Below the pieces are notes generated by a model. It saw only the letters and a list, made by a program, of their open reading frames with translations. It ran no database searches and was not told the DNA's origin. Shown in pieces: positions 32,475-54,196 of a DNA stretch of 64,000 nucleotides (position 1 is the first letter of the stretch; each line of letters begins with the position of its first letter). Made by a program: the position numbers and the translations under genes. Source of the DNA: Nitrospirota bacterium (GTDB lineage Bacteria; Nitrospirota; 9FT-COMBO-42-15; HDB-SIOI813); NCBI GenBank assembly GCA_016212215.1, contig JACRGV010000047.1, positions 2,680-66,679 of the forward strand. Reading direction: 5' to 3'.

Positions 32475-34103
32475 ATGAACTTTTTCCTTGCAATAGCTTT
32501 AATAGGTAGTATCCTGTTTTATAACCCAGTGTTCGTGAGGGGAGAGGAGCCGCCTTCATCTGAAAGTATAAAGACTGAGGAGGCACCTCTTCCTGTACAA
32601 GAAGGCACTTCTATACCGGCCGGTACAACAGAGGTCAAGCCTTCTGCAAATGAAGAAATACCACCACAGCCCGGCCCTCAAATAGAAGCCCCTGCATTGC
32701 CGCCTGCTGAAGGTACAGTTCAGGGGATTATGGAAGAAACCGTACCTCCTTCACCTCCCCGTGGTATATTAACATGGCTCAATGAAGAGGTGTTGAAGGA
32801 TATTGAGGTAAGAGGATACCTTAAGAATGAAACTGCCTACAGATATGTGAGTCCATCTGCATTTGCGAAGATTTTAAATATACTTCAGGTTGAACCTTCT
32901 TATTCGTTTAATTCAAGTATCAAGCTAAGTGCGAGGGCATGGGTCTATTACGACCTTGCTTATGATATACAGGATGTGGGGAATATTGCACCAATTAAGG
33001 CATTTACATTCATCCAGCCGCCGGGTGCGGGAGGGGCAGAACCTAAGATAGAAAACCTTAGGACGATTCAGACGGATAAATATGGTATTGACCTCAAGGA
33101 GATTTACTTCGACCTTTTCTTCGGAAGTATGGACTTCAGGGTAGGGAAGCAGATTATCAGGTGGGGCATTGTAGAAGGCTGGCGTATACTTGACGATGTG
33201 AACCCGCTTGATTTTAAGGAACATATATTGCGGGATGTTTCCGACAGATACATACCTTTGTGGATGTTAAAGGCCGATTATTATGTCGGTCCGATTACTA
33301 TTGAAGGCTTATGGATTCCAGATTTAAAGGGGCATGAACCTGCACCGCTCCGTTCCGAATGGTCTCAGTTTCAGAAACTTCCCGGTCTGGTAAGGATCCC
33401 GAGGACTATTAAAAACAGTGAGGGCGGCTTACGAACTTCAGGTATGTTGGGTGGGTATGAATTTGCATTGACATATTTTTATACATGGGATGACTTCCCG
33501 ACTGCCTTCAGGTCAGTTGCAGGGCTTGGTCTCGGTAATATCGGCATTTCTCCGACAGTTGATTTTACCCCAAGATACAGGAGGAATACTGAATACGGGC
33601 TTGGGCTTGCAAAGAGTTTTGGGAAAATAGTCCTTGAAGGCGAAGTAGCTTATGTGGATGGAAAGTATTGGGGAACGTGCACAGGATGCACTCCAACCGG
33701 AGGAACATTCGGCGAGCTTCAAAGGGATTATTGGAAACATGTTATGGGGGTGAAAACAGTTCTTTTTGGGGCGGATATTTCTGTAAATTTTTCACAGGAT
33801 ATAATCCTGAATCATCATAAAGATATACAGCAAAAAAGACATGAAGATGCAGCCTCTCTTTTTGCAAGGAAGGAGATCCGCTATGGAACAATGGTACCTC
33901 AGCTTCTTGCGATTTCCCTTATTAATCGTCATGAGTATTTATTCAGACCTAAACTTGAATGGAGATATTCAGATAAGATAACATTCCTTTTTGGGCTTGA
34001 TATTTTCTCCGGTGACGCAGGGCCTGATCCCGGAAGGTTGAACTTCTTCGGATATTTTGATGATGATGACCGTGCCTATATGGAGGTTAAGTACAGCTTT
34101 TGA
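32475..34103 (+). CDS. Porin-like outer-membrane protein (DUF1302-like). The ORF track start at 32337 lies in a REP element; the likely start is MNFFLAIAL at 32475.
   Basis: Signal peptide, about 540 aa, beta-strand periodicity, C-terminal ...MEVKYSF. Located between the LolA-like and MMPL genes. Confidence 0.5.
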   Translation: MNFFLAIALIGSILFYNPVFVRGEEPPSSESIKTEEAPLPVQEGTSIPAGTTEVKPSANEEIPPQPGPQIEAPALPPAEGTVQGIMEETVPPSPPRGILTWLNEEVLKDIEVRGYLKNETAYRYVSPSAFAKILNILQVEPSYSFNSSIKLSARAWVYYDLAYDIQDVGNIAPIKAFTFIQPPGAGGAEPKIENLRTIQTDKYGIDLKEIYFDLFFGSMDFRVGKQIIRWGIVEGWRILDDVNPLDFKEHILRDVSDRYIPLWMLKADYYVGPITIEGLWIPDLKGHEPAPLRSEWSQFQKLPGLVRIPRTIKNSEGGLRTSGMLGGYEFALTYFYTWDDFPTAFRSVAGLGLGNIGISPTVDFTPRYRRNTEYGLGLAKSFGKIVLEGEVAYVDGKYWGTCTGCTPTGGTFGELQRDYWKHVMGVKTVLFGADISVNFSQDIILNHHKDIQQKRHEDAASLFARKEIRYGTMVPQLLAISLINRHEYLFRPKLEWRYSDKITFLFGLDIFSGDAGPDPGRLNFFGYFDDDDRAYMEVKYSF

Positions 34104-34221
34104 GAAGCAAGAAGTAAGAAGTTAGAAGTAAGAAGTTAGAAGCAAGAAGCAAGAAGTTAGAAGTAAGAAAAAGGGTGCAATCGAATCCTTGCCCCCTTGA
34201 ACCCTTTATTTAGTAAGGAGT

Positions 34222-37200: not shown

Positions 37201-37479
37201 GAAGAGAAGTCAGAAGTAAGAAGTCAGAAGCAAGAAGCAAGAAGTAAGAAAGAAGATATTGATGAGGCAATTAAAAGGACACTCTTAACTGCAGGTAAAG
37301 CTATTGTTTTTGTAGCCGCAGCAATGAGCGTCGGCGGTATTACGCTTCTGTTCACTGGATATTATTTGCACATGGAAGGTTTTTTAGTTCCACTTGCCAT
37401 GTTTACAAGCTCTTTGTCAACATTGATTGTATTACCTGCGGTGGTGGCTTTGGTGAGGCCGAGGTTTATCTATAGGTAA
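34222..37479 (+). CDS. MMPL/RND-superfamily transporter (HpnN-like) carrying five in-frame insertions of repeat elements
   Basis: Two sets of six TM helices plus periplasmic loops (GGLPIALSFLEAD..., AGHSVQILKRYYEE, GFGADYSIYMVYRL). The hydrophobic cores are interrupted by low-complexity segments encoded by heptamer and REP repeats. Confidence 0.75.
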   Translation: MTMLQKHIQRIVRFPVTIILLTIFATLFFGYQFKSLFMVLDPKALLPQEHPYVKLNNEIEKQFGGSRVVLIGLASKDGDIFNPSDIEKIRRINEEVKKIPGILENNVVSIADKKVKYVKAEGNSLDIKGVLEGIEYTDEGMKELKERVYSNPAFINSLVSADGKVAAIILDFKGGASDWQQKAGGEQKTEVRSQKQEVSSNQSEVRSKKQEVRNDEAEGGRLKAEVRNEKQETSSTHGGGSLSFFPSPLTGEGKGGGGLVASAYAQEDWKKWQKGGGAEQKQEAGKQEAEGGRLKAEAGSKKQEGGNTETPSSPSTGEGTTPQTPSPSTGEGTTSQIPSPSTGEGKGGGEQGKWPAGGGEGGWGGAGGGEANWEQWYVSDSTIHKKILEIVDKYKDANTDIYVGGLPIALSFLEADSLRMTKYVYPLALIVIMIVLYFAFQSIQGMILPIVCALLSVVWAVGLMGVFKIALDPWNMMTPILILAVAAGHSVQILKRYYEELGNAPLTHPSPHWGEGKGEGERGGEDDRHWGVIASRKAVVDSLSKIGPVMITAGLVAAASFASLVTFKLKTFQSFGIFTAFGILSALILEMTFIPAARSLMKPPKRQLAVSSKQLAGTPSPLTGEGRGGGGLLDRFMLSISRLVTHRSGFVWVGLLVVIAFSVYGIEHLTIINSLKGLFFESTQFRKDDAALNKSFGGTATFYVYLEGDKEDSLKNPEVLRAIESLQKEIESVPEVGKTQSFVDYVKSMNQSMHGGDPAYRVIPADQQTISEYLFLFTISGSQGEMDRFLDYQYQKSVIWVFLRDDSTVLGQRLIDIVNKYGGGVEARSKKQEVRKDEAEGGRLKAEVRNEKAEVRSKTQETTVPSPLAGEGQGGGDRFPPGIKVGVAGSIPVMMALNQTMVAGKIWNILQIAGIVFVISAIVLRSVIGGILVLLPLGVAVLVNFGVLGIAGIGLGVGTAAISAMAVGFGADYSIYMVYRLREEARSKKQEEKEEKSEVRSQKQEARSKKEDIDEAIKRTLLTAGKAIVFVAAAMSVGGITLLFTGYYLHMEGFLVPLAMFTSSLSTLIVLPAVVALVRPRFIYR

Positions 37480-37616
37480 GCCATGGAGAGAAGTAAGAAG
37501 TAAGAAGCAAGAGGCAAGAAGTAAGAAGTAAGAAGTAAGAAGATAGAAGTAAGAAGATAGAAGTAAGAAGTAAGAAGTTAGACATAAGACATAAGACATA
37601 AGACTTTAGAGGCAAG
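37480..37616. repeat. Long heptamer tandem array (AAGTAAG, AAGATAG, ACATAAG variants)
   Basis: agaagtaagaagtaagaagcaagaggcaagaagtaagaagtaagaagtaagaagatagaagtaagaagatagaagtaagaagtaagaagttagacataagacataagacataagac. Confidence 0.9.
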
Positions 37617-37982
37617 ATGGCGATACGGAGTTATAGGGATTTAAATGTATACTCACTTTCATATAGCCTCGCTATGGAGGTATTTCATATAACATTACGT
37701 TTTCCAAAAGAGGAAATGTATTCCTTGAGCAGCCAGATTAGGAACTCCTCAAGGTCGATACCTGCAAATATTGCTGAAGGGTGGGCAAAGCGAATATACG
37801 AGAATATTTTCAAACGGCACCTTGTTGATGCAATAGGCTCAACATGCGAAACTATAGTATGGTTAGATTTTGCATTAGACTGTAAGTATATTGACAACAA
37901 TAATCATTTGAAATTATCTGAAAATTATAAAGAAGTTGGAAAAATGTTAAATGGCCTACTTGAAAACTGGCAAACCTATTAA
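37617..37982 (+). CDS. Four-helix-bundle protein (23S rRNA intervening-sequence protein family)
   Basis: 121 aa. YRDLNVYSLSYSLAMEVFHIT...PANIAEGW matches the family signature (dL.VyQ.a..l...i......P.NIAEG). Confidence 0.7.
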   Translation: MAIRSYRDLNVYSLSYSLAMEVFHITLRFPKEEMYSLSSQIRNSSRSIPANIAEGWAKRIYENIFKRHLVDAIGSTCETIVWLDFALDCKYIDNNNHLKLSENYKEVGKMLNGLLENWQTY

Positions 37983-39033
37983 GTCGAAATCCTTTCTTGC
38001 TTCTATCTTCTTGCGTCTTGTTTCCCGTTTCTTACTTCTTACTTCTTACTTCTTACTTCTTACTTCTATTTTAGCTCCCCGCCCTGCCTACGCTGCCCTT
38101 CAGCCCAGCCTTTCTATTGTAACAGGTTATTATATGCCGAGGCTTGATGAGTTGAACTATATTTTAAAATATAGAGAGGTTGAGCTTGGCCCCCGTAATA
38201 CAGAAGCAAAACCCTCACCATATCCTGTCATATATCAGGGCTATAGCCCTGAAGGTATGCCTAAGATGAGTCCTAAGTCCCCAAAGTTCGGACTCCAATT
38301 TCAGGTTGATATTAATCCCAGGTATTCTGTGTTTATTGGAAATAGTGTTGCTACTTATGATTCCGAGAAAAGAGACGTGAGGTCATTCTTTGTGGGTTTT
38401 TCAATACCTTCTGACCGTGTAACAAGGTTTTCCCTTTCATTGAATCAACTATGGATAGGGGTTAAGAGGAACTGGATATTTGAGGAAAAGGGGAAGCCAG
38501 AAGAAAGAAGCAAGAGGCAAGAAGCAAGAAGTAAGAAGGAAGAAGACGGAAGCAAGAAGCAAGAAGCAAGAAGTCAGAAACAAGAAGAAAGTCAGAAGCA
38601 AGAAGATAGAAGTAAGAAGGCAGAAGAGAAGCCTGCCTCAAAGCTTTATGTGGAGATGGGGGTGCTTGCTGTAACAAGGGCATATCTTACTACAGACGTG
38701 TGGTTGCATGTTTACGCCCCTGAGGAGGGTTTTGATTTCTATAAGGTTACGGAAACTCTGTCACAGGGATACGGATATGCAACCTTCATAGGTATAGGCG
38801 GGGAATACTTCATAAAGAAATGGATGTCATTAGGCTTGGATGCGGATTATACTATAGGCGGTGTCTCAAAGATAAAATATGCCAGGTACTTTACAGTAGA
38901 CCCTCTGGAGAAAGATATTATTAAACCAGGGGATAAGGTTACATATACAGATCTAAAGGTTGGCCGCGTTGCCCCATTGTTTATAAACTTAGAGGGAGTG
39001 GATATAAAGGGGCAGGTAAGGTTTTATTTTTAG
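37951..39033 (+). CDS. Outer-membrane beta-barrel protein with an in-frame repeat insertion. The likely start is the TTG near 37996, giving signal peptide (M)RLVSRFLLLTSYFLLLTSILAPRPAYA.
   Basis: Ends ..GQVRFYF (C-terminal aromatic). The central KPEERSKRQEARSKKEEDGSKKQEARSQKQEESQKQEDRSKK is encoded by heptamer repeats. The signal peptide is encoded by the reverse complement of the same repeat. Confidence 0.5.
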   Translation: MAYLKTGKPIKSKSFLASIFLRLVSRFLLLTSYFLLLTSILAPRPAYAALQPSLSIVTGYYMPRLDELNYILKYREVELGPRNTEAKPSPYPVIYQGYSPEGMPKMSPKSPKFGLQFQVDINPRYSVFIGNSVATYDSEKRDVRSFFVGFSIPSDRVTRFSLSLNQLWIGVKRNWIFEEKGKPEERSKRQEARSKKEEDGSKKQEARSQKQEESQKQEDRSKKAEEKPASKLYVEMGVLAVTRAYLTTDVWLHVYAPEEGFDFYKVTETLSQGYGYATFIGIGGEYFIKKWMSLGLDADYTIGGVSKIKYARYFTVDPLEKDIIKPGDKVTYTDLKVGRVAPLFINLEGVDIKGQVRFYF

Positions 39034-40921: not shown

Positions 40922-43900
40922 TTGACTGGAAAGGTTATTTCCGATATATTCAACGTCTTTATGATATTCTTAAAAATTAGAAATAGCTTTATTCGTGTTC
41001 TGATTCTTGCCTTTTTTTCTCTTACTTCTTACTTCTTGCTTCTTACTTCTTGCTTCTTATCTCTGTCCGGCAATAACTACGCCTATGCAGAGGAGGCACA
41101 GCCCACTGTCTCTTCTCCGCTTGAAAGGGGCATCCGGCTTCTGAATGAAAAGAAACCTGATGAGGCATTAAAGGCCTTTGAAGAGGCTTCATCCGTAAAT
41201 CCGACGGACCCCTTACCCTTTTACTATTCAGGTGTTGCGTATCATATTAAACGGCAGTTCGCCCCGGCCCTTAATGCATTAAACAAGGCATTAAATCTTC
41301 AGCCTAACATGCCGCCTGCCCTGCTCAGGATAGGTATGCTGTTTGAAGACGTGGGGAGGATTAACAATGCAAGGGAAGTTTATACCGACCTTATTGAAAC
41401 AGGTGTAGAAAATGAGTATGTTAAAGAGGCAAGGGAAAGGCTGAACAGGATTACATCAAAGGAACATTTCAAGAAGGCATCCCAGCTTTTTATCGGAAAA
41501 CAATATGAAGAGGCGCTTAAGGAACTGGATATAGTCTTATCCCTTACGCCTGAAGATGCTGAGGCACTTTTTTCTTCCGGAATGGTCTCTGTATTTTTAA
41601 AAAAACCTAAAGAGGCTGTGTATTTCTTTAAGAAGGCTTTAGAAAATAATCCAAACCATGTTAATGCACGTTTACAACTTGCGATTGTGTATGAGTCTCA
41701 GGGTGACTATGAAAATGCAATAAAGACTTTTAAAGAGCTTATTTCGTTCTCACCTAATTCTACTCAGGCAAAGGAGGCTGAGAAAAGGCTCGCAGAAGAT
41801 GAAAAACGATTTAAGGCCCGCGGCCATTTTGAGGCGACGGCAGAATTGATACGCAAAGAACTCTGGACAGAGGCCCTCGCTGAGGCAAAGAAGGTGTTGG
41901 AGGCAGAGCCTGATAATCCGGATGCACATTTCAATCTTGGTTTAATCCATTATAAACTTAAACAGAATGACCAGGCTATCGAGGCATTAAAACATGCGAT
42001 TGATGCTGACCCAAAACTTCAAAAGGCATACTACCAGCTTGGGGTTGTATATGATGATATGGCGAAATATAAGGAAGCGGTTGAGGAGTATGAAAAGACT
42101 ATTGCTATAGATGAAAAGGCAGAAGAGGCTACTAAGGCAAGGGAGCGTATTGAACTCATTAATTCTGTGAATGTAGAGGAGGAGGTAGCCAACGAGGTTA
42201 AGGAGCTTCTTAAAAACAAAGATGTTGACAGTGCCATAAAAGAGATAGAAGGTTTTTTAATGAGGAAGAAGGGGGATACAAAACTCCTGATGACCCTCGC
42301 TGCTTTATATCAGCGTGCAAATCGTTATCAGGATGTTGCCTCTACCCTGGAAAAACTGTTGAGTTTATCTCCAAAGGATATAAAGGCTCGTTTCTTCCTT
42401 GCAAATACTTATGAATTGATGAGGGAGTATGAAAAGGCATTAGATCAATACCGCATATTGGCAGATCAGGATAAAGAGACACCAAAGGGAAAAAAGGCAG
42501 AGGAGAAGGTGCAGAGATTAACATTACAGGTACATTATGACCGTGGTAAAAAGTATCTTCTATCAGGGAATTATGAGGCATCCCTGATAGAAATGAAGGC
42601 AGTCCTTGATGTTTCTCCTGATGAGCCGCTTGCACTTTTCAATATGGGTGTTCTTTATGACCGTCTAAATAGTCCTGACGAGGCAGTGTCATCTCTAAAA
42701 AAGGCAGTTACCATTGTTCCTGATTATACAATAGCCTACTTTCAACTTGGATTAGTTTATGAAAAGATGAGGAAGTTTGATGAGGCAAGAGATGCATTAC
42801 GTAAAGTCATAGAGATTGACAAAGAGGGTAAAGAGGCAAAGATAGCACAGGATAGGATCAATTCTCTGAAGGAAAACGAGGAATTAACCTTACGCCTAAA
42901 GGAAGCAATAGGTTTTATGGAAAAAAGGGAATGGGATAATGCGAGGAAGTCTATTGAGTCTCTATTAGTCACTCATCCATCCAACTATATGGGATATTAT
43001 TATCTCGGTATTATTCTGAATAGGTCAGGGATTATAGATGAGGCTAAGGCGGCTTTTAAGAAGGTTATCGCTATTAATCCAAAATTTGCGGCGATATATC
43101 TTCAACTTGGGGATATGTTGATGCAGGAGGGCGAATATGAAGAGGCAAGAAACAACTATGAGCAGGCGATCCTAATTAATAAAGATTCTCCGGAGGCGGC
43201 AACAGCCGGGGAACGACTTAAAAATCTGAAGGCATGGTGGGGTAGTTTTTCTATGAGTCACAGCTACAATTCAAACATAGCCTTCCGCTCTAAGGCACAG
43301 TCAAGTGCAAACTCCAATTATAACCTTGGGTTGAGCTATACAATGCTTCGCCGAAAAAATTGGAATATATCTACTGTACTATCCGGTAGTGAAGCCATTT
43401 ATTATGAAAGCCAATTTAAGGGGAATTCATACTCCGCTGCCTTAAACGGAACCCGTAATTTTCTGGATAAATATACCTTATCAGGCTCCGGAACATATAG
43501 CGCATCCTTTTTTGAAGGGAAACCGACTGTTGTCTCGACTCATTTCTCTGGAAATGCAGGGACAAATCCGGGAGGAATACCATCGTCAGCTACCCTTGCA
43601 TATTCTTTTTCCAACACAAGGTCTTTTGTAAATAAATTAAGTAATGCAAACCAACATAATCTGAATCTGTCACTCTCACAAAAAATGTCTGCACGGGATT
43701 CATTAACCGGTAGTTATGGATTCAGCATATATCAAAATCTTGATCCCATAGGCAGTAATTATGCAAACAGGACGCATGCTGTTTCTTTAAGTTACGGCCA
43801 CCACTTTTTTTCTTTTTTAAACCTGAGCCTCAGCTACTCAAGAAGCTTTATAAACTACAGTAACCCGGATTCAACAACACTTTTTCAGAGATACCGCAGT

Positions 43901-44131
43901 AATGTAAGTGAGGGAATGAATGGGGGGCTTAGCGTCTCTTTTTCAGAAGATGTTTCATTGTCTTTCAGCTATACTTTTTCCTATGCAATAAATCGTACAA
44001 ACCTTGCGCCGTTAACGGCGGAAGAACAGCAACAACTGAAGGACCTCCTGTCTACCCCACTTCCAACAGTCGGCGGCGGGGGAGGATATACTGCACACAA
44101 TGCAGGTTTATCATTAAGCGTTCGCTTTTAG
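40922..44131 (+). CDS. Outer-membrane protein with a periplasmic TPR-repeat domain and a C-terminal beta-barrel (PgaA/BcsC-like architecture)
   Basis: At least 14 TPR units across residues 60-780. The C-terminal roughly 290 aa is Ser/Tyr/Asn-rich with alternating strands and ends ..LSLSVRF. The signal peptide FFSLTSYFLLLTSCFLSLSGNNYAYA is encoded by reverse-complement heptamer repeats. Confidence 0.65.
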   Translation: MTGKVISDIFNVFMIFLKIRNSFIRVLILAFFSLTSYFLLLTSCFLSLSGNNYAYAEEAQPTVSSPLERGIRLLNEKKPDEALKAFEEASSVNPTDPLPFYYSGVAYHIKRQFAPALNALNKALNLQPNMPPALLRIGMLFEDVGRINNAREVYTDLIETGVENEYVKEARERLNRITSKEHFKKASQLFIGKQYEEALKELDIVLSLTPEDAEALFSSGMVSVFLKKPKEAVYFFKKALENNPNHVNARLQLAIVYESQGDYENAIKTFKELISFSPNSTQAKEAEKRLAEDEKRFKARGHFEATAELIRKELWTEALAEAKKVLEAEPDNPDAHFNLGLIHYKLKQNDQAIEALKHAIDADPKLQKAYYQLGVVYDDMAKYKEAVEEYEKTIAIDEKAEEATKARERIELINSVNVEEEVANEVKELLKNKDVDSAIKEIEGFLMRKKGDTKLLMTLAALYQRANRYQDVASTLEKLLSLSPKDIKARFFLANTYELMREYEKALDQYRILADQDKETPKGKKAEEKVQRLTLQVHYDRGKKYLLSGNYEASLIEMKAVLDVSPDEPLALFNMGVLYDRLNSPDEAVSSLKKAVTIVPDYTIAYFQLGLVYEKMRKFDEARDALRKVIEIDKEGKEAKIAQDRINSLKENEELTLRLKEAIGFMEKREWDNARKSIESLLVTHPSNYMGYYYLGIILNRSGIIDEAKAAFKKVIAINPKFAAIYLQLGDMLMQEGEYEEARNNYEQAILINKDSPEAATAGERLKNLKAWWGSFSMSHSYNSNIAFRSKAQSSANSNYNLGLSYTMLRRKNWNISTVLSGSEAIYYESQFKGNSYSAALNGTRNFLDKYTLSGSGTYSASFFEGKPTVVSTHFSGNAGTNPGGIPSSATLAYSFSNTRSFVNKLSNANQHNLNLSLSQKMSARDSLTGSYGFSIYQNLDPIGSNYANRTHAVSLSYGHHFFSFLNLSLSYSRSFINYSNPDSTTLFQRYRSNVSEGMNGGLSVSFSEDVSLSFSYTFSYAINRTNLAPLTAEEQQQLKDLLSTPLPTVGGGGGYTAHNAGLSLSVRF

Positions 44132-44855
44132 CGTTCATCCGAAAATCCCTTCCGGCGGGGTAAGAAAACCCCGCCTACCCATATCTATGAGGATAGGCGG
44201 GATATTCTTGTCCCGTTGATTTTCATGGCCCTTTGTGAGCGCCCCGCTCATGAGGGTTCATCCGAAAATAACCCCCCCATGCCCCCCCTTGAACAAAGGG
44301 GGGGATTGCCGTTGGCCATTGAGCACCAAAGGAACTTTCCCCCCCCTTAACAAGGGGGGGCTTGGGGGGGTGGTTTTCATCCTCCTTTGTGAAACCTCCG
44401 TTTCATGACAGTTCACCCGAAAATCTCCGCTAATTGCCCGTCATGGTTCGACAGGCTCACCATGACACCTTGGCTGTCATTCTGAGAAATGTAGCGTCGG
44501 GGTTTATCCCCGACGTCTAAAGCTCATCTACCGTAGACCTCCAAGTTAGCCTTCTGAGACGTTGGGGATAAACCCCAACGCTACGAAAACCATTGTACAG
44601 AATTTTCATCCCCCTTTGTGAGCGCCCCGCTCATGAGGGTTCATCCGAAAATCAACCCCATCCCCACCCTACCCCTCCCCTTGAAGGGGCGGGAATCAAC
44701 ATAGCCCCCTCTCCCTCAGGGAGAGCTGCAATTAAATTCCTTCCAAATCCCTCCCCCCTCTTTTGCGGGGGGAGGCAGGAGGGGGGATCAGGGTGAGGGT
44801 GGGGTTTTCATTGCCCTTTGTGGTCGCCCCTCATGACGGTTCTATGGCATAGTTA
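44132..44855. repeat. Large intergenic block of REP modules, including the inverted copy of the roughly 250-bp composite element and a distinct 160-nt nested-hairpin element
   Basis: gggacaag modules (44150..44230), polyC/polyG palindromes (44270..44390), a nested hairpin (44440..44600), and the inverted composite copy (44625..44855). Confidence 0.85.
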
Positions 44856-47117
44856 TTGCAAGAATGCAATAACAAAGTGAGTAGAAATAAATTACCTAAT
44901 ACCTTATCACATCCATATATAGCCTTTATCCTTTTTGCATCAATTGGTACCTTGATATATTTGAATTCCCTTAATAATCCATTTCAATTTGATGATTTTA
45001 ATGTAGTAGTTAATAATTTCAAGATACAAGAAATAAAGAATATACCCTACTTTTTTATTAATCCAAGATTCGGAGCCAACAATCCAATGGCCGCCGGACA
45101 CTACAGGCCTATTTTATTTACAAGTTATGCAATCAATTATGCTATAGGCGGGTTGAATACCCTTGGCTATCATATAGTTAATCTGGCTTTTCACATTGGG
45201 ACAGCGTTTTTAGTTTTCCTCATAGTGAAGGGAATGTTGGAAGACAGTAAGCAGGTAGCAGTAAGCAGTGAGCAGATAGCAGAAAACAAACAGAAGTTAG
45301 AAGCAAGAAGTCAGACGACAGCAGACATCCAGCGGGACAAGAATGTCCCGCCTATAGATAGTCGGGGTTTTCTAACGCCTACGTTTGTAGATAGTCGGGG
45401 TTTTCTAACCCCGATGTTTGTTGCCTCAGTGGCTTCTGGTCTTATTTTCCTTGTCCATCCATTTAATTCAGAGGCTGTAAATTATATAACAGCCCGTTCG
45501 AGTATAATGAGCGGGTTCTTCTATTTGTTGGGGTTTTATTGCTGGGTGCTTTTTAGAAGTCAGAAGAAAGAAGCAAGAAGCAAGAAGTTAGAAGCAAGAA
45601 GTAAGATTTCAGAAGAAAGAAGTCAGAAACAAGAAGTTAGAAGTCAACAGGCAGAAGAAAGAAGTAAGAAGGCAGAAGTAAGAAGTAAGATAGGGGAAGA
45701 CCGGCAAGGTTTTTCTAACTTCTTACCTCTTACCTCTTACTTCTATCTTTTTTCCCTCCTCGCCTTTATCGCCGGTATGTTAAGTAAAGAAGTGGTGATA
45801 ACTTTGCCGGTAATGTTGTGGTTGTATGATTTGTATGGGTTTAGCAGAAGCAAGAAGTTAGAAGCAAGAAGTAAGAATCAAGAAGATAACACAGTAATAA
45901 ATAAGTATGCAGTATTTGATTTGCGTACCTATATCCCCTATCTCCCTTTTGTTCTTCTTGTAGCGATACCGTATCTGCTAGTACGTCTCTTTTCACTCGG
46001 CAGGGTGCTTGATAAGTTTCAGAGGGGTTTTATTACACAACTGTTCACAGAGTTGCCTGTTCTTGTGAGACATTGGCAGATGTTTTTTATCCCAAAGGGC
46101 TTTAGCCTGGTTCACGATGTGGATGTATTCCATGGCATGACATGGTTGTTTATGGTTTCAGTTGTAATATTGATATTATATCTGTGTGGTATTGTGTATC
46201 TATTTTTGTATGGAAAAGGCCGTTGGCGTATTATATCTTTTTTTATGCTGTGGTTTTTTATTGTACTGCTTCCAACAACAATTATTCCACTTAATGCAAT
46301 CTTTCAGGAAAACCGGGGTTACATGGCCTTGTTAAGTTTTGCAGTACCGGCAGGGATTGCAATTGAGACTTTGTTTAATTATAAAAAAAGTGTAGTATTG
46401 AAGGTTATCGTGCTGTTATTATTATTGGCGGTTTATGGAAGTATTACGATGCAGAGAAACATTGTATGGGGGGATGATATTAAGTTATGGAAGGACGCAT
46501 TAGAGAAGTCTCCGCAATCCGGGATTTCCTTTGCAGGATTATCTCTTGCCTATAAGAACAGTGGTGATACATTTCTCTCAATTGAAACTGCGAAAAAGGG
46601 AATTTCTGTAGAACCTGATAGCTATTATCTCCATATGCTTATAGGAGCAGATTTTCAGGCACTTGGTCAAATGGATGAGGCCGCTAAAGAATATGAAAAT
46701 GCGCTTAATATAGATGCAGGTTTCGGTAATGTATGGAATGACCTTGCAGTTTTGTATATAGAAAAAAACAACCTTGAACGTGCGGAGCAGTGCTTAAAAA
46801 ATGGGATAAAGGTTTGGAAGGATTTGCCTCCTCTTTACTATAATCTGGGCAGGATAGATATAATGCGCGGAGATTTTGTTAATGCTATTAGCCACTATGA
46901 AACAGCAGTAAAATTGTATCCGGATTACCTTACTGTGAGGTATGACATGGGAGAGGCTTATGAAAAACTTAATAAGATAGATCAGGCAAAGGAACAGTAC
47001 AGAGAGATTATTAAATATAAAACAATTAATCTTAAAAATTTGAATTACAGGTATGGGTTAGATGAAAAAATAGCAGGGGAAATTATAGCAAAGGCGGAGC
47101 AGAAGTTTAATCAGTAA
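44856..47117 (+). CDS. GT-C-fold glycosyltransferase (PMT_2/DUF1736, TMTC-like) with C-terminal TPR repeats; paralog 1 of 4
   Basis: About 11 TM helices. First-loop NPFQFDDFNVV acidic motif and HYRPIL motif. C-terminal TPR units. In-frame heptamer and REP insertions. Confidence 0.7.
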   Translation: MQECNNKVSRNKLPNTLSHPYIAFILFASIGTLIYLNSLNNPFQFDDFNVVVNNFKIQEIKNIPYFFINPRFGANNPMAAGHYRPILFTSYAINYAIGGLNTLGYHIVNLAFHIGTAFLVFLIVKGMLEDSKQVAVSSEQIAENKQKLEARSQTTADIQRDKNVPPIDSRGFLTPTFVDSRGFLTPMFVASVASGLIFLVHPFNSEAVNYITARSSIMSGFFYLLGFYCWVLFRSQKKEARSKKLEARSKISEERSQKQEVRSQQAEERSKKAEVRSKIGEDRQGFSNFLPLTSYFYLFSLLAFIAGMLSKEVVITLPVMLWLYDLYGFSRSKKLEARSKNQEDNTVINKYAVFDLRTYIPYLPFVLLVAIPYLLVRLFSLGRVLDKFQRGFITQLFTELPVLVRHWQMFFIPKGFSLVHDVDVFHGMTWLFMVSVVILILYLCGIVYLFLYGKGRWRIISFFMLWFFIVLLPTTIIPLNAIFQENRGYMALLSFAVPAGIAIETLFNYKKSVVLKVIVLLLLLAVYGSITMQRNIVWGDDIKLWKDALEKSPQSGISFAGLSLAYKNSGDTFLSIETAKKGISVEPDSYYLHMLIGADFQALGQMDEAAKEYENALNIDAGFGNVWNDLAVLYIEKNNLERAEQCLKNGIKVWKDLPPLYYNLGRIDIMRGDFVNAISHYETAVKLYPDYLTVRYDMGEAYEKLNKIDQAKEQYREIIKYKTINLKNLNYRYGLDEKIAGEIIAKAEQKFNQ

Positions 47118-47127
47118 GTTTTAATGT

Positions 47128-49353
47128 ATGAAAGAAGATATGTTCGGGTTCAGAAAAGGGTGTCACCGGTATCTCATAGTCTTTTGTATCTTTTTATTTG
47201 CAGGTCTGCTCATCTATTGGAATTGCTTAAGTAATCCTTTCCAGTATGATGATGACGGCGTGGTTGTTAAGAATACTAATATTAAAGATGTTAAAAATAT
47301 CCCGCTTTTTTTTATAAACCCAAGACTGTCTGAAAGTAATCCTCTGTATGCAGGACATTACAGACCTATTGTTTATGCAAGTTATGCGGTTAATTATGCT
47401 ATCGGGGGATTAAACCCATTCGGGTATCATGTTGTTAATCTGGCGATTCATATTGGTTCTGCGTTTTTGATATTTCTTATAATGAAGGCAATGTTAGAAG
47501 ACAGGAAGCAGTCAGCAGTAAGCAGTGAGCAGATAGCAGAAAACAAACAGAAGTTAGAAGCAAGAAGTCAGACGACAGCAGACATCCAGCGGGACAAGAA
47601 TGTCCCGCCTATAGATAGTCGGGGTTTTCTAACGCCTACGTTTGTAGATAGCCGGGGTTTTCTAACCCCGATGTTTGTTGCCTCAGTGGCTTCTGGTCTT
47701 ATCTTCCTTGTCCATCCATTTAATTCTGAGGCTGTAAATTATATAACAGCCCGTTCGAGTATAATGAGCGGGTTCTTCTATTTGCTGGGGTTTTATTGCT
47801 GGGTGCTTTTTAGAAGTCAGAAGCAAGAAGTAAGAAGTAAGATAGGAGAAGACCATCGTGGTTCTTCTAATTATTTAAATCTAACTTCTAACTTCTTACC
47901 TCTTGCATCTTACCCCTTACCTCTTACCTCTTACTTCTATCTTTTTTCCCTCCTCGCCTTTATCGCCGGTATGTTAAGTAAAGAAGTGGTGATAACTTTG
48001 CCGGTAATGTTGTGGCTGTATGATTTGTATGGGTTTAAGTCAGTAAGCAGTAAACAGTTAGCAGTAAGCAGTAAACAGACAGAAGGAAGTAACACACAAT
48101 GCCCCTCCGAATCTGCTCACCGCTCACTGCTTACTGCTGACTATCTTTTAAACTGGCGTAACTATGTTCTATATCTCCCTTTTGTTCTTCTTGTAGCAAT
48201 ACCGTATCTGCTTATGCGTCTCTTTTCCCTTGGGAAGGTGCTGGACAAGTTTCAAAGGGACATAGTAACTCAAATACTTACTGAGGTACCGGTTTTATTT
48301 AAACACTGGCAGATGTTTTTTATCCCAAAGGGTTTTAGTCTGGTACATGATGTGGACATTTTTCATGGTATGACGTTGTTGTTGATGGTTTCAATCGTAT
48401 TATTTATTTTGTACTTGGTAATTACTCTATATCTTTTTTTGTCCGGTAGTAGATACCTGCGGGTTGTATCTTTCAGTATGATGTGGTTCTTAATTGTACT
48501 CCTTCCAACAACGATTATGCCTTTAAATGCGATCTTTCAGGAAAACCGGGGATACCTTGCAGTTGTATCATTCTCTTTATTAATCGGGGTTGTACTAATG
48601 GAACTCGGTAAGAGGGTCAACAGGACAACAGTTATAAGCATTACTGTTATTTTGTTTATTATCTACGGAGTAATTACAGTCAAAAGGAATTTTGTATGGG
48701 GAGACAGTATCAGGCTTTGGAAGGATGCGGTAGAGATTGCGCCAGGTTCCGGAATAGCATACGCCGGTTTATCTGCAGTATATAGAGAGAGGGGAGACAT
48801 GTTTCTTTCAATTGAAACAGCAAAAAGGGGGCTTAATGCGGAACCGGACAATTACTATTTACACCTTAATCTCGGGCGTGACTACTTTCTTTCAGGAGAT
48901 GTTGACAAGTCCATACAGGAATATGAAAATGCTTTAAGAATTGATCCTAATGATGCGGTTTCAATGAATGAGCTTGCAACACTTTACGTTAAAAAAGGAG
49001 ATATTGAACAAACTGAGATATTCTTGAAGAAGGCAGTCCGGAAATGGTATAGTCTGCCCCCTCTTCACTACAATTTGGGCGTGGTGCTTGTAGGACGTGG
49101 AAAATTATCAGAGGCCGTGACGGAGTTTCAGGAGGCTATTGCCATTTATCCGGCATATCTTCGTGCAAGGTATGAATTAGGTGAAGTCTATGAAAAAACC
49201 GGCAGGTTAGACATGGCAAGAGAACAGTACAATGAAATTATCAGGTATGGCTCACCTGATACCGCTACTGTAGAACTGTTGTATGACCAGGATAAAAGAA
49301 TCGTGGATCGGATTGTAAGTATGGCCAGGCAAAAACTCGGGAATAAACAATGA
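47128..49353 (+). CDS. GT-C-fold glycosyltransferase (TMTC-like) with C-terminal TPR repeats; paralog 2
   Basis: Same architecture as paralog 1 (NPFQYDDDGVVV, HYRPIV). A block of about 330 nt is near-identical to paralog 1. Confidence 0.7.
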   Translation: MKEDMFGFRKGCHRYLIVFCIFLFAGLLIYWNCLSNPFQYDDDGVVVKNTNIKDVKNIPLFFINPRLSESNPLYAGHYRPIVYASYAVNYAIGGLNPFGYHVVNLAIHIGSAFLIFLIMKAMLEDRKQSAVSSEQIAENKQKLEARSQTTADIQRDKNVPPIDSRGFLTPTFVDSRGFLTPMFVASVASGLIFLVHPFNSEAVNYITARSSIMSGFFYLLGFYCWVLFRSQKQEVRSKIGEDHRGSSNYLNLTSNFLPLASYPLPLTSYFYLFSLLAFIAGMLSKEVVITLPVMLWLYDLYGFKSVSSKQLAVSSKQTEGSNTQCPSESAHRSLLTADYLLNWRNYVLYLPFVLLVAIPYLLMRLFSLGKVLDKFQRDIVTQILTEVPVLFKHWQMFFIPKGFSLVHDVDIFHGMTLLLMVSIVLFILYLVITLYLFLSGSRYLRVVSFSMMWFLIVLLPTTIMPLNAIFQENRGYLAVVSFSLLIGVVLMELGKRVNRTTVISITVILFIIYGVITVKRNFVWGDSIRLWKDAVEIAPGSGIAYAGLSAVYRERGDMFLSIETAKRGLNAEPDNYYLHLNLGRDYFLSGDVDKSIQEYENALRIDPNDAVSMNELATLYVKKGDIEQTEIFLKKAVRKWYSLPPLHYNLGVVLVGRGKLSEAVTEFQEAIAIYPAYLRARYELGEVYEKTGRLDMAREQYNEIIRYGSPDTATVELLYDQDKRIVDRIVSMARQKLGNKQ

Positions 49354-49886
49354 AGTTTGAAATATAATCAGAAAGAGATTGGTAGTTATGAACCGTCATG
49401 AGCCTTCGGCTCACAAATGTTGATGAAAATGAGGCCCCCCCACCCGGCCCCCCTCCTGCCTCTCCCCCCGTAAAGGAGGGGGGAGGATTTGGTAGAAATT
49501 TAATTGTAACTCTCCCGCCGGGGGAGAGGGAGGCTGACGTTTATTCCTCTCCCTTGACGGGAGGGGGTTAGGGGGAGGGTGAGCTATGGAGATTTTCGGA
49601 TGAACCCTCATGAGCCTTCGGCTCACAAAGGTACATGAAAATGAGGCTCAGGATGAAACAACCCCACCCTCACCCGGACCCTCTCCCTGAGGGAGAGGGT
49701 GCTTAGTTTTTATCCCCTCCTCTTCAAGGGGAGGGTTAGGGTGGGGATGGGGTTGATTTTCGGATGAACTCCCATGAACCGAGGGTTCACAAAGGGCCAT
49801 GAAAATCAGCGGGACAAGAAAGTCCCGCCTATCCTTATAGAAATGGATAGGCGGGGTTTTCTTACCCCGCCGGAAGGGATTTTCGG
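49354..49886. repeat. Large intergenic REP block between glycosyltransferase paralogs 2 and 3
   Basis: Diverged copy of the composite element (tcatgagccttcggctcacaaa x2, ctccccccgtaaaggaggggggag, ctctcccgccgggggagag, cctctcccttgacgggaggggg) plus ccctccccttcaaggggagggttagggtggggatgggg and gggacaagaaagtcccgcc..ggcggggttttcttaccccgcc. Confidence 0.85.
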
Positions 49887-51947
49887 ATGAAAGATTGGTT
49901 GGATAAGCGATATGTAATTTTTATTATCTTCTTGCTCATAGGGATTCTGACGTATTGGAATAGCTTTGGTAATAGTTTTCATTATGATGATGAAATGGTC
50001 ATTGTTTATAATAGGAATGTCACCTCTCTAAAAAATATCCCGTATTTCTTTATAAATCCTAAGATGATGTTTTCGGATCTGATGCCGGGTGGGCATTATC
50101 GTCCTCTTGTGCTTACTTCTTATGCTGTCAGCTATGCGTTCACTCAATTAAATCCTGTAGCCTATCATCTATTCAACTTTTTCTTCCACGTGGGGTCGGC
50201 GTTTTTGATATTTCTTATAGTGAAGGCTATGTTAGGCAGCATTCAGCAGTCAGATGACGCCCATCGGGACAAGAATGTCCCGCCTATAGATAGCCGGGTT
50301 TTTCTAACGCCTACGTTTGTAGATAGCCGGGGTTTTCTAACCCCGATGTTTGTTGCCTCAATGGCTTCCGGTCTGATTTTTCTTGTCCATCCGTTTAACT
50401 CAGAGGCTGTGAACTATGTTACTGCCCTCTCCAGCGTAATGAGCGGGTTCTTTTACCTTCTGGCATTTTATTGCTGGGTGCTTTTTAGAAGTCAGAAGCA
50501 AGAAGTAAGAAGTAAGATAGGGGAAGACCGGCAAGGTTTTTCTAACTTCTTACCTCTTGCTTCTTGCTTCTATATAGCTTCCCTCCTCGCCTTTATCGCA
50601 GGTATGTTAAGCAAAGAGGTAGTGATTACACTTATAGTCGTGTTATGGCTGTATGATATGTATGGGTTTAGGTCAGTAAGCAGTAAGCAGTCAGCAGTTA
50701 GCAATGAACAGTTAGCTGATAAAACTGCTTACCGCTCACCGCTTACTGCTGACTATCTTTTAAACTGGCGAACTTATATCCCATATATTCCTTTTGTCCT
50801 TCTCGTAGCGGTGCCTTATTTATTAATAAGATTATTTTCACTTGGGAAGGTGCTTGACCATTTTCAGAGGGATATATGGACTCAGTTGTTTACAGAGCTT
50901 CCGGTTCTGGTCAAACACTGGCAGATGTTTTTTATACCTGTTGACCTCACTCCCCTTCATTTAGTGGAAATATACAGGACTTATTGGTCTTTCCCTGTAT
51001 TATTATCCACGGTCATTATCACAGCATATTTAATTATCGCATTTATTCTTTCACGGGTTCAGAGGCGGACTTTACGCATTATCTCCTTTTTTATGTTCTG
51101 GTTTTTTATAGTTCTCTTACCCACAACTATAATCCCTTTAAATGATATTTTTCAGGAAAACCGCGGTTACCTTGCAATGGTAAGTTTTGCAGTCCTCGCC
51201 GGTGTAGTAATAGGCGAGTTGGGGAGGATAAAGATTAAATGGGTTTCAATGGCAGTTCTGGTCGGTTTAATTATTTTTTACGCCGGCTGTACAGTACAAA
51301 GGAATAAGGTTTGGAAAAGTGAGATGGCCCTCTGGACCGATGCATTGAAGAAGTCTCCAAGGTCTCCGGCAGTTTACACAGCATTAGCTGTTGAATACAA
51401 AAGGGCAAGAAAGTTTAACATGGCTATAGATGCATCAAATAAGGCTATTTTACTGGGGGGCAATGATAATTTCTTTATCCATGACAATCTTGGGAGAATC
51501 TATTCTATGCAGGAAAAGTATGACCTTGCTATAAAGGAGTTTGAACAGGCAGTAAAACTGTATCCCTATAAATCGGATACTCATAATGAATTAGGTCATG
51601 CCTATTTTATAATGGGCAAAATAGAGTTAGCGGAAAAGGAGCTTAAGGAGGCTATTAAGTACGATCCAAAATTCTCCAGACCTTATTATAATCTAGGGAT
51701 CTTGAGCAGGCGGGGTGGAAAATCTTCTGAGGCTATAAATTATTTTAAGACTGTAATTTCATTAAATCCGGCACATTCGAAATCGTGGTTTAATTTAGGG
51801 TCATTGATGGAAGAAATGGGCAACAAGGATGAGGCATTAAGATATTACAACAGGGCAGTTCAGGTAACTGCAAAGGATGAACAAGACGTAGCCCAGGAGG
51901 CACGTGAGGCTATTGACAGGCTTGAGAAGATGAGGGCAGCAAGATAA
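49887..51947 (+). CDS. GT-C-fold glycosyltransferase (TMTC-like) with C-terminal TPR repeats; paralog 3
   Basis: NSFHYDDEMVIV, HYRPLV; TM domain followed by TPR repeats. The same REP-derived RDKNVPPIDSR..FLTP loop is present. Confidence 0.7.
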   Translation: MKDWLDKRYVIFIIFLLIGILTYWNSFGNSFHYDDEMVIVYNRNVTSLKNIPYFFINPKMMFSDLMPGGHYRPLVLTSYAVSYAFTQLNPVAYHLFNFFFHVGSAFLIFLIVKAMLGSIQQSDDAHRDKNVPPIDSRVFLTPTFVDSRGFLTPMFVASMASGLIFLVHPFNSEAVNYVTALSSVMSGFFYLLAFYCWVLFRSQKQEVRSKIGEDRQGFSNFLPLASCFYIASLLAFIAGMLSKEVVITLIVVLWLYDMYGFRSVSSKQSAVSNEQLADKTAYRSPLTADYLLNWRTYIPYIPFVLLVAVPYLLIRLFSLGKVLDHFQRDIWTQLFTELPVLVKHWQMFFIPVDLTPLHLVEIYRTYWSFPVLLSTVIITAYLIIAFILSRVQRRTLRIISFFMFWFFIVLLPTTIIPLNDIFQENRGYLAMVSFAVLAGVVIGELGRIKIKWVSMAVLVGLIIFYAGCTVQRNKVWKSEMALWTDALKKSPRSPAVYTALAVEYKRARKFNMAIDASNKAILLGGNDNFFIHDNLGRIYSMQEKYDLAIKEFEQAVKLYPYKSDTHNELGHAYFIMGKIELAEKELKEAIKYDPKFSRPYYNLGILSRRGGKSSEAINYFKTVISLNPAHSKSWFNLGSLMEEMGNKDEALRYYNRAVQVTAKDEQDVAQEAREAIDRLEKMRAAR

Positions 51948-52069
51948 TGAAACATCCATGAGCGTACCGCTCACAAAGGATGATGATAATGACGGGACAA
52001 GAATGTCCCGCCTATCCTCGTAGAAATGGATAGGCGGGGTTTTCTTACCCTGCCGGAAGGGATTTTCGG
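51948..52069. repeat. REP modules between paralogs 3 and 4
   Basis: catgagcgtaccgctcacaaagg and gggacaagaatgtcccgcctatcctcgtagaaatggataggcggggttttcttaccctgcc. Confidence 0.8.
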
Positions 52070-54196
52070 ATGAATACAAAGGGTTCATGGTTCTCAACTA
52101 TAATTTGCAGTAAGACATTAGTCCTTTGTTTGTTCGTTCTTCTTGGTACAGCGGCATATCTTAATAGCCTGCATAATATGTTTCAGTATGATGATTATTT
52201 TTACGTCACCTACAACAAGAGCATAAGGTCATTAAATAATCTGCCTCAGTTTTTTACAAATCCAAGATTACTTATTTCAGACCATCAGGCAGGTCATTAC
52301 CGGCCGCTTGTATTGTTGAGCTATGCTATTAATTATGCCCTTGGCGGCCTTGATACCTTTGGTTATCATCTGACAAATCTCATCTTTCATATAGGTACAG
52401 CATTTTTGCTATTTCTTATAGTGAAGACCATGTTGGAAGGCATGGGGCTTGGGGCAGAAGTCAGAAGCAAGAAGTTAGAAGCAAGAAGTCGGACGTCAGC
52501 AGATATCCAGCGGGACAAGAATGTCCCTCCTATAGATAGTCGGGGTTTTCTAACCCCGATGTTTGTTGCCTCCGTGGCTTCTGGTCTTATTTTCCTTGTT
52601 CATCCTTTCAATTCCGAGGCTGTAAACTATATTACAGCAAGGTCAAGCGTAATGAGCGGATTCTTTTATCTGCTGGGATTTTACTGTTGGGTGAAGTTTA
52701 GAAGTCAGAAGTCAGAAGTTAGAAGCCAACAGACAGAAGAAAGAAGCAAGAAGTTAGAAGCAAGAAGTAAGATAGGAGAAGACCTGCGAGGTTCTTCTAA
52801 CTTCTTACCTCTTACTTCTTACTTCTATATTGCTTCCTTCCTTGCCTTTCTCGCAGGTATGTTGAGCAAAGAGGTTGTGATTACACTGCCAATCGTGTTC
52901 TGGTTGTATGATATTTATTGGCCCAATAGAAGCAAGAAGCAAGAAGTAAGAAGTCAGATGCAAGAAGATAAGACAGATAACAATACTGCTCACCGCTCAC
53001 CTCTTAATGCGGGGTATATATTAAACTGGCGGACATACATACCGTATCTCCCCTTTATCCTTATAGTAGTAATCCCATATTTTTTAATGCGGTTTTTTTC
53101 ACTTGGAGGGGTCCTGACGCCATTCAAGAGAGATGTAATGACACAGTTGTATACTGAACTGCCTGTACTTGTAAAACACTGGAGACTTTTTCTTTTCCCA
53201 ACCGGGCTTACATTCGGCGACGTTATAGGAGTCCGAAATAATCTCTGGTCATTCGAAATAGTCCTCTCTGCATGTTTCGTCATTGTATACCTTATATTGG
53301 CTGTATATCTTTTTCTTCGTAATGAATTATTTGCAAGAATATCTTCATTTTTCATGTTCTGGTTTCTGATTGTAATTATACCTACCACTATTATTCCCTT
53401 AAACGTGATTTTTCAGGAAAACCGGGGGTATCTTGCTATAGTGAGTTTTGCTGTTCTGACAGGGATAGTGATCAGCACCTTTTTAAACAAACTATCCGCT
53501 AAGCCGGCATTTGTAATATTGATAATACTGATTGGGGTTTACTTTGGAGGGACGGTTGCACGGAATCGGGTATGGAATAGTGAGGTAGGGTTATGGAAAG
53601 ATACCATTGATAAGTATCCTGAATCGTCAAAACTCTACATAGCCTTAGGGGTTGCTTACACAAGGGCTAATATGTATAATGATGCACTTGATGCATTAAA
53701 TAAGGCTTTTGATTTAGGCGGGGGTAAAGACCCTGCTCTCCATGAAGCACTTGGAAAAATATATATTGTTCAGAAAAAATGGGACCTTGCAGCAATAGAA
53801 TATGAGAAAATGATTCAGGTACGTCCGGATTATTCCGGGTTTCGTAATGACTTAGGTGCAATATACTTTAACATCGGGAAATTAGACCTTGCAGAGGTGC
53901 AATATAAAAGGGCACAACAGCTTGACCATCTTGACTACCTGCCTCATTTTAACCTGGGAGTTTTATACACAGAGAAGGGGATGCTGAAAGAGGCAGTAAA
54001 GGAATATAATATATCAATCGCTTTATATCCTGATTATGTGAAGGCCAGATTTAATCTTGCAGAATTATTAGAAGAACTTGGAGATAAGGCAGGGGCACGG
54101 GAATATTACAGTTATATAGTAAAACAAAAAGGGAGTGAAGATAGAGAACTAACACATGAGGCAGGGCTAAGACTGGCTAACCTCATGAAATTATAA
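52070..54196 (+). CDS. GT-C-fold glycosyltransferase (TMTC-like) with C-terminal TPR repeats; paralog 4
   Basis: NMFQYDDYFYV, HYRPLV; TM domain followed by TPR repeats, with in-frame heptamer insertions. Confidence 0.7.
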   Translation: MNTKGSWFSTIICSKTLVLCLFVLLGTAAYLNSLHNMFQYDDYFYVTYNKSIRSLNNLPQFFTNPRLLISDHQAGHYRPLVLLSYAINYALGGLDTFGYHLTNLIFHIGTAFLLFLIVKTMLEGMGLGAEVRSKKLEARSRTSADIQRDKNVPPIDSRGFLTPMFVASVASGLIFLVHPFNSEAVNYITARSSVMSGFFYLLGFYCWVKFRSQKSEVRSQQTEERSKKLEARSKIGEDLRGSSNFLPLTSYFYIASFLAFLAGMLSKEVVITLPIVFWLYDIYWPNRSKKQEVRSQMQEDKTDNNTAHRSPLNAGYILNWRTYIPYLPFILIVVIPYFLMRFFSLGGVLTPFKRDVMTQLYTELPVLVKHWRLFLFPTGLTFGDVIGVRNNLWSFEIVLSACFVIVYLILAVYLFLRNELFARISSFFMFWFLIVIIPTTIIPLNVIFQENRGYLAIVSFAVLTGIVISTFLNKLSAKPAFVILIILIGVYFGGTVARNRVWNSEVGLWKDTIDKYPESSKLYIALGVAYTRANMYNDALDALNKAFDLGGGKDPALHEALGKIYIVQKKWDLAAIEYEKMIQVRPDYSGFRNDLGAIYFNIGKLDLAEVQYKRAQQLDHLDYLPHFNLGVLYTEKGMLKEAVKEYNISIALYPDYVKARFNLAELLEELGDKAGAREYYSYIVKQKGSEDRELTHEAGLRLANLMKL

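Follow-up and report, generated by a model that had tools for sequence, protein, structure and literature searches.

A 64-kb stretch (64,000 nt, hereafter the window) of contig JACRGV010000047.1, from a Nitrospirota metagenome-assembled genome (MAG), carries four consecutive genes that almost certainly encode TMTC-like enzymes, in which a GT-C glycosyltransferase domain is joined to a tetratricopeptide repeat (TPR) domain. They are probably periplasm-facing transferases that modify acceptors, most plausibly the surface proteins encoded downstream. TMTC1-4 (CAZy family GT105) are protein O-mannosyltransferases for cadherins and protocadherins; to our knowledge no such enzyme is known outside animals, in which TMTC defects lead to malformation of the brain and loss of hearing. 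The four products, of 753, 741, 686 and 708 aa (paralogs 1–4), had been picked out earlier from the sequence alone, and the common polytopic N-terminal domain ascribed to them was borne out: paralogs 2, 3 and 4 are 63, 51 and 51% identical to paralog 1, and the motifs NPFQFDDF, NPFQYDDD, NSFHYDDE and NMFQYDDY, together with HYRP(I/L), are all present exactly as that sequence-only reading quoted them. The C-terminal TPR domain was likewise recovered, with Pfam TPR matches at about residues 520–720. Paralog 2 is identical to NCBI entry MBI5192676.1, labelled 'tetratricopeptide repeat protein [Nitrospirota bacterium]' and located on a 78.8-kb MAG contig. Paralog 1 starts with TTG, an alternative GTG lying 7 codons further 3'.

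The relationship to TMTC is carried by profile comparison. A family profile built from 19 aligned Nitrospirota N-domain sequences was aligned by hhalign with the N-terminal sequences of human TMTC1-4, taken from the supplement of Eisenhaber et al. 2021 (PMC7801869). The match reached a probability of 99.84% and an E-value of 1.9e-30 over 394 columns and covered the entire domain on both sides; the negative control, an authentic PMT_2 protein of the related locus L001, gave a probability of 0.15% with the same profile. BLASTP also aligned paralog 3 with TMTC2 (E 4e-11), the repeat-derived segment of the paralog being a gap in TMTC2. Both results uphold the GT-C-type, TMTC-related identity first proposed from the sequence. 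Furthermore, several of the TMTC motifs M1–M7, as defined in PMC7801869, have counterparts in the family. The DD of M1 is conserved; the YRP of M2 (SHKSYRP) aligns with that of GHYRP, at a DD-to-YRP spacing of 36 residues as in TMTC3; and HPIHTEAV (EL2), KE(T/Q)xxT (M4) and ERxxY (M7) align with HPFNSEAV, KEVVIT and ENRGY, the common patterns being HP..[ST]E.V, KE..T and E(N)R..Y. Across 88 aligned homologues, all four paralogs among them, the residues D34, D35, N42, F55, R72, P73, H101, P169, Y177, W197, Y229, K243, E244, P351, E424, R426, N473 and W476 (paralog 3 numbering, used throughout) are invariant, and K243, E244 and R426 align with TMTC residues modelled as donor-phosphate binders (PMC7801869).

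The same 88 sequences served as AlphaFold2 input for a model of paralog 3. This model (predicted local distance difference test score, pLDDT, 90.1; predicted template-modelling score, pTM, 0.90) has low confidence in three loops only and contains 11 hydrophobic helices, followed after the last transmembrane helix (TM11) by 12 helices of the TPR part, with about six TPRs past residue 479. The polytopic membrane domain has the conserved GT-C helical core, and the acidic D-D/E motif (D34/D35) lies in the first extracytoplasmic loop, which the positive-inside rule places in the periplasm, in agreement with the location expected by the sequence-only reading: across the 19 family sequences, Lys and Arg make up 17.3% of the predicted cytoplasmic loops versus 7.8% of the periplasmic ones. 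All conserved motifs fall on the predicted periplasmic face: loop 1 holds DD and HYRP, loop 2 HPFNSE.V, loop 3 KE..T, loop 4 His358 and loop 5 ENRGY. Since the N-terminus is predicted to be cytoplasmic and the number of TM helices is odd, the TPR domain would be periplasmic too, so that the DD loop and the TPR domain are both predicted to face the periplasm, in the same orientation as the lumenal side of TMTC. As expected of TMTC sensu lato, full-length N-domain homology with M1, M2, M4 and M7 is found together with a predicted periplasmic TPR domain. Searches of the PDB by sequence with the membrane domain (phmmer and a hidden Markov model (HMM) profile) gave no match, those with the full-length profile were dominated by TPR proteins, and Foldseek with the whole paralog 3 model returned TPR proteins alone. 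An O-antigen ligase and an unrelated transporter, the identities that would have spoken against a GT-C membrane domain, were both rejected on fold and homology, and for the former (Wzy_C type, PglL) neither Pfam nor NCBIfam yielded a Wzy_C match.

With TMTC1-4 the paralogs share an 11-TM GT-C domain followed by a lumenal or periplasmic TPR domain, homologous from end to end, as well as the occurrence of several paralogs per genome and of beta-sandwich adhesion-type domains in their neighbours or substrates. They differ from TMTC1-4 in being only 18% identical, in a shorter TPR domain (about 6 repeats) and in the repeat-DNA inserts of their cytoplasmic loops. Furthermore, because the paralogs reside in a bacterial inner membrane, the donor would be a bacterial polyprenyl-phosphate sugar and not dolichyl-phosphate mannose (Dol-P-Man). 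Full-length prokaryotic TMTC homologues have been mentioned before, none of them characterised, and one, AMJ42_05695 of Deltaproteobacteria bacterium DG_8, matches TMTC3 at E 3e-47 by plain BLAST (PMC7801869). This protein is also a bacterial GT-C and TPR fusion annotated merely as a TPR protein; it is nearer to TMTC3, whereas the Nitrospirota family is more divergent and occurs as tandem arrays in a conserved surface-protein block. Consistent with the earlier statement that bacterial TMTC-like proteins are essentially uncharacterised, our literature searches gave no experimental or functional work on them. ArnT, the undecaprenyl-phosphate-L-Ara4N:lipid A transferase (PDB 5F15), has no HMM-detectable sequence similarity to the paralogs and differs from them in having 13 TM helices, a small soluble domain instead of TPRs and a lipid acceptor. 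The fungal and actinobacterial PMT enzymes (GT39; Pmt1/2/4) carry MIR domains where the paralogs have TPRs, and the PMT_2 protein of L001 shows no profile similarity to them.

The array lies downstream of a 1069-aa protein and upstream of a set of secreted proteins (Table 1). The former had been taken for a TPR beta-barrel outer-membrane protein, an assignment strengthened by its TPRs and by a model in which the last 316 aa form a 14-stranded barrel whose matches are limited to outer-membrane barrels. PgaA, BcsC, PelB and Slam have an N-terminal periplasmic TPR array and a C-terminal barrel in common with it, and the Slam barrel likewise has 14 strands. Among the downstream products, the 1761-aa protein contains 21% Ser plus Thr versus 9–16% in the other open reading frames (ORFs), and the 744-aa protein has an fn3 module and a C-terminal domain of some 220 aa in common with it (E 6e-19). 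Family loci in other genomes, numbered L001 onward, were collected by a genome scan with two exact motif patterns; because only these two were used, the scan gave almost only Nitrospirota MAGs (one is labelled Geobacteraceae and one unclassified) and is not a measure of wider distribution. These loci reveal a conserved block that runs from the TPR/barrel protein through two to five TMTC-like genes and the small TPR protein to the giant fn3 protein, the He_PIG protein, a protein of about 240 aa and a multihaem cytochrome. It is present in L001, L003, L004 and L006 and partially in L010, L016/L018 and L023 (at least seven Nitrospirota MAGs), with order and strand kept at only 35–60% protein identity among MAGs. 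This synteny supports, without proving, a link between the paralogs and the adjacent surface proteins. That the paralogs are dedicated to glycosylating these neighbours we would give slightly less than an even chance.

On the model of TMTC, PMT and ArnT, each paralog would most likely draw one sugar unit from a polyprenyl-phosphate-sugar donor on the periplasmic side of the membrane and pass it to an acceptor held by its TPR domain. The most plausible acceptors would be Ser and Thr residues of the Sec-exported beta-sandwich (fn3, He_PIG) proteins encoded just downstream. Modification would precede the outward movement of these proteins, for which the co-conserved TPR/beta-barrel outer-membrane protein is a possible route. 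At L005 a homologue adjoins a polysaccharide cluster (GT2 with DUF2304, DegT and flippase genes), which we read as a hint at the donor.

Several observations weigh against this reading. PF08409 (TMTC_DUF1736), PMT_2 (PF13231) and PMT (PF02366) gave zero matches at E<=10 with all paralogs and with an insert-free homologue, though human TMTC3 matched PF08409 at E 1.1e-31 in the same scan; the 'PMT_2/DUF1736 hallmarks' of the sequence-only reading therefore fell away, and of the HMM families it had named TPR alone was found. Whole proteins, N-terminal domains and the insert-stripped domain matched TPR families only in Pfam and NCBIfam, and none of the 120 homologues listed has a precomputed Pfam domain, PMT and PMT_2 included, in the membrane region. 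Given clear profile and motif homology despite this lack of a Pfam match, we regard the paralogs as a remote TMTC-like GT-C lineage and not as Pfam-defined TMTC. Two motifs are also altered: DW (M5, the core of DUF1736 in the TM7–TM8 loop) is replaced by His358-x, and RxD (M3) reads R-S-S, keeping the Arg without the Asp. Even this Arg181 is absent from paralog 3, where it is Leu (VTALSS); it is Arg in more than 90% of the family (ITARSS). Leu181 may mark a different donor sugar or lowered activity; a Leu181-type change occurs in at least one homologue elsewhere (ITALSS). As to the proposed acceptors, the description of three large Ser/Thr-rich surface proteins holds for the 1761-aa protein, whereas the 744-aa (15.5% Ser plus Thr) and 260-aa (16.5%, and small) proteins are not notably rich. 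Furthermore, no polyprenyl-phosphate-sugar synthase gene is present in the 64-kb window, and family members at L005/L011, L007, L013, L014, L017 and L020 have no giant-protein neighbour. Finally, the best structural match of the membrane domain is ArnT, a lipid A transferase, which leaves room for a non-protein acceptor.

Such an acceptor could be a glycolipid, lipid A or lipopolysaccharide, or a periplasmic or exported polysaccharide, modified by ArnT- or Emb-like enzymes whose TPR domain docks to a TPR/beta-barrel exporter as in PgaA/BcsC/PelB-type systems. We consider this unlikely, since the sequence homology is to TMTC, a protein O-mannosyltransferase for which ArnT is likewise the closest relative with a solved structure (PMC7801869), and since the conserved partners are secreted proteins. 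Moreover, the window holds neither a GT2 BcsA/PgaC-like synthase nor Wzx/Wzy genes, and the matches of the barrel are generic, TonB-dependent receptors and porins ranking higher. The enzymes might instead be protein O-glycosyltransferases with broad or other envelope clients, their adjacency to the giant proteins reflecting co-regulation. This fits the size of the family, whose profile matches 80,319 clusters (50% identity) at E<=1e-3 among 1.84 billion representatives, so that the kind as such is common and known in outline. It also fits the further copies away from giant proteins in the same MAGs (L014, L017 and, with about 7 copies, L020) and a fifth paralog of greater divergence (P0122, MBI5192688.1), which lies on the same contig as the window, 12 genes onward by accession numbering. 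We nevertheless judge it quite improbable, as arrays directly 5' of giant fn3/He_PIG genes recur among the MAGs with order and strand kept despite the low protein identity.

It is also conceivable that the genes are decaying or non-catalytic, either repeat-invaded pseudogenes in the making or mere TPR scaffolds; each carries 3–5 repeat-derived inserts, the insert regions have low pLDDT, and paralog 3 has lost Arg181. Four open frames persist, however, over 2.0–2.3 kb each, every invariant catalytic-site residue is kept, and the inserts are restricted to three cytoplasmic loops that vary in length among homologues too. With similar inserts in other ORFs of the window that are intact and of housekeeping type, decay is very improbable.

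The most divergent parts of the paralogs are their TPR domains. These fall into orthogroups that are kept across genomes, namely alpha (paralogs 1 and 2), beta (paralogs 3 and 4) and a third class that does not occur in the window. Two ancient classes within one array suggest that labour is divided among acceptor sites. A further-reaching picture, which we hold to be doubtful, is that of a self-contained, domain-specific protein O-glycosylation system, the prokaryotic counterpart and possibly a relative of the TMTC-cadherin pathway. Two or three TPR classes would then direct the enzymes to distinct sites on a giant surface-layer- or adhesin-like protein delivered via the TPR/barrel partner, and slippage in the imperfect heptamer arrays within the coding regions, which would shift the reading frame since 7 cannot be divided by 3, could turn individual transferases off and on and thereby create phase-variable surface glycoforms.

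What is new here is a divergent subfamily without the DUF1736 signature, arranged in conserved tandem arrays with distinct TPR classes, paired in a conserved manner with candidate substrates and an outer-membrane partner, and combining in-frame repeats with gene conversion. The bacterial family of some 80,000 clusters to which it belongs is annotated merely as 'tetratricopeptide repeat protein', its catalytic domain lying outside every Pfam model. The locus thus offers a concrete and conserved candidate enzyme-substrate pair that is approachable by co-expression and, if tested, would make bacterial TMTC-like glycosylation accessible to experiment and give a simpler model for the selection of folded beta-sandwich acceptors by TPRs. 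It is also an example of selfish repeats tolerated in frame within cytoplasmic loops and of a paralog array partly homogenised by gene conversion even as its TPR domains drift apart.

The paralogs exceed their orthologues (about 610–670 aa) by 40–130 aa because translated in-frame repeat DNA sits in three cytoplasmic loops (TM2–3, TM4–5 and TM6–7), to which the inserts are confined in all four. These loops account for the low-pLDDT regions of the model, and TMTC has nothing that corresponds to them; in other MAGs the same loops of homologues bear different repeat-derived inserts. A central tract of about 600 nt, which spans TM3–TM6 and the TM2–3 and TM4–5 inserts and leaves the TM6–7 insert (e.g. 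45846–45884) just outside, shows 80–100% nucleotide identity among the four paralogs (96–100% between paralogs 1 and 2) versus 40–65% elsewhere. From this pattern in the sequence we infer that the tract has been homogenised by gene conversion.

Two kinds of repeat make up the inserts. One is a palindromic element of about 65 nt with three hairpins, CGGGACAAGAATGTCCCG-CCTAT..ATAG-CGGGGTTTTCTAACCCCG (also written CGGGACAAGAATGTCCCG-CCTATCC..GGATAGG-CGGGGTTTTCTTACCCCG), present in 10 copies in the 64 kb, both in spacers and in genes. The central 15-nt loop is missing from the copies inside genes, and in paralogs 1–3 the right arm is duplicated. The element is reminiscent of the Rickettsia palindromic elements, which insert into coding regions. 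The other kind consists of imperfect heptamer arrays (units AGAAGNN, GCAGTNA, AGTGAAT, GCAGTAA and GAAGGCT, among others), often with an inverted copy after them, which resemble the short tandemly repeated repetitive (STRR) sequences of cyanobacteria; the literature yielded nothing on heptamer repeats in Nitrospirae. The window contains 46 period-7 tracts, about 27 of them within ORFs and 16 of these within the four paralogs. Heptamer tracts also occur in otherwise intact ORFs, such as those of an ABC ATPase, the MMPL transporter, a 360-aa protein and the TPR/barrel protein. Two long spacers, 44131–44856 (725 nt) and 49353–49887 (533 nt), are crowded with other repeats, including an element of about 55 nt (ATTTTCATG..TGTGAGCGCCCCGCTCATGAGGGTTCATCCGAAAAT) in both orientations and palindromes of G-runs and C-runs (CCCCCCCTTGAACAAAGGGGGGG). 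No Rfam family was found in the window, these spacers included; promoter and terminator scans stayed at background level, the in-gene 'terminators' being arms of the palindromic element.

Table 1. Positions of genes and repeats in the window
Feature	Position	Strand	Description
Type II secretion set	2928-18825	-	complete
Rhomboid-family protease gene	21254-21919	-	
LolA-like/DUF1329, DUF1302, MMPL set	31485-39033	+	MMPL of RND type
23S_rRNA_IVP/bAvd-like protein	37617-37982		four-helix protein
TPR/barrel protein, 1069 aa	40922-44131	+	N-terminal hydrophobic segment, ~700 aa of TPRs, C-terminal barrel; ends ...SLSVRF
Paralog 1, 753 aa	44856-47117	+	GT-C domain ~44856-46469, then TPR; DD codons 44991-44996; TPR class alpha
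Paralog 2, 741 aa	47128-49353	+	GT-C domain ~47128-48699; DD codons 47248-47253; TPR class alpha
Paralog 3, 686 aa	49887-51947	+	GT-C domain 49887-51314; DD codons 49986-49991; TPR class beta
Paralog 4, 708 aa	52070-54196	+	GT-C domain ~52070-53575; DD codons 52190-52195; TPR class beta
Small membrane-anchored TPR protein, 246 aa	54217-54957	+	conserved
Candidate acceptor 1, 1761 aa	54993-60278	+	secreted; internal repeats, fn3 modules, ~220-aa C-terminal domain
Candidate acceptor 2, 744 aa	60290-62524	+	He_PIG (Ig/cadherin-like) and fn3; C-terminal domain as in 1761-aa protein
260-aa protein	62526-63308	+	N-terminal domain as in 744-aa protein (E 3e-12); hydrophobic/basic C-terminal tail
Multihaem cytochrome c, start only	63463-64000	+	CVFCH, CLSCH; runs past the window; last member of syntenic block
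Tract of putative gene conversion, paralog 1	45240-45840	+	matching tracts ~47500-48030, 50240-50660, 52450-52920
Palindromic element in paralog 1	45333-45415	+	in frame, cytoplasmic TM2-TM3 loop, translated RDKNVPPIDSRGFLTP
Palindromic element, other paralogs	47590-47672, 50265-50347, 52511-52560	+	in frame
Palindromic element, intergenic copies	2849-2904, 44156-44216, 49810-49875, 51993-52058		
Palindromic element in DUF1302 ORF	32417-32438		
Heptamer arrays (AGAAGNN)n, then inverted (NNCTTCT)n	45550-45757	+	in frame, cytoplasmic TM4-TM5 loop, paralog 1
Period-7 tracts in paralog 1, examples	45245-45292, 45846-45884		
Period-7 tracts in paralog 2, examples	47807-47951, 48037-48082		
Period-7 tracts in paralog 3, examples	50482-50575, 50669-50714		
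Period-7 tracts in paralog 4, examples	52453-52489, 52691-52832, 52923-52968		
Heptamer arrays elsewhere	25849-25884, 34778-34911, 36692-36780, 37158-37261, 38015-38077, 38491-38591, 41012-41066		

Further observations concern the surroundings of the array. In L001 (3615–7797) the array is interrupted by a 986-aa membrane protein with a Spermine_synth domain and, on the opposite strand, by the 397-aa PMT_2 GT-C protein. The cluster there has thus taken in a second GT-C enzyme, one unrelated to the array. In L003 and L004, too, the surface-protein genes are followed by cytochromes, of about 900 aa, and the question arises whether the giant proteins might be part of a sheath or of a structure for extracellular electron transfer. 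Pfam gave nothing useful for the barrel of the 1069-aa protein or for the 1761-, 425-, 360- and 260-aa proteins. At the C-terminus of the 260-aa protein a Gly-rich segment leads into a hydrophobic helix and then into basic residues (GLGCGT...IASIILLFLPVILVRLKRL), a tail that might be a C-terminal sorting signal of the rhombosortase type or similar.

The remaining window encodes a type II secretion system (T2SS), the rhomboid protease, molybdopterin genes and the LolA-like/DUF1302/MMPL set. The T2SS comprises GspC, the secretin GspD, the ATPase GspE, GspF, the pseudopilins J and K, the PilM-like L, and M, and could be relevant to the export of the giant proteins. The same region encodes a 786-aa DUF6055 protein and a CarboxypepD_reg protein, both of which may be T2SS cargo. 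After the MMPL (resistance-nodulation-division (RND)-type) set comes the four-helix protein and then the repeat-riddled 360-aa ORF. Finally, in L004, L010 and L021 the MMPL, 360-aa and 425-aa genes likewise keep synteny with the TMTC-like block.

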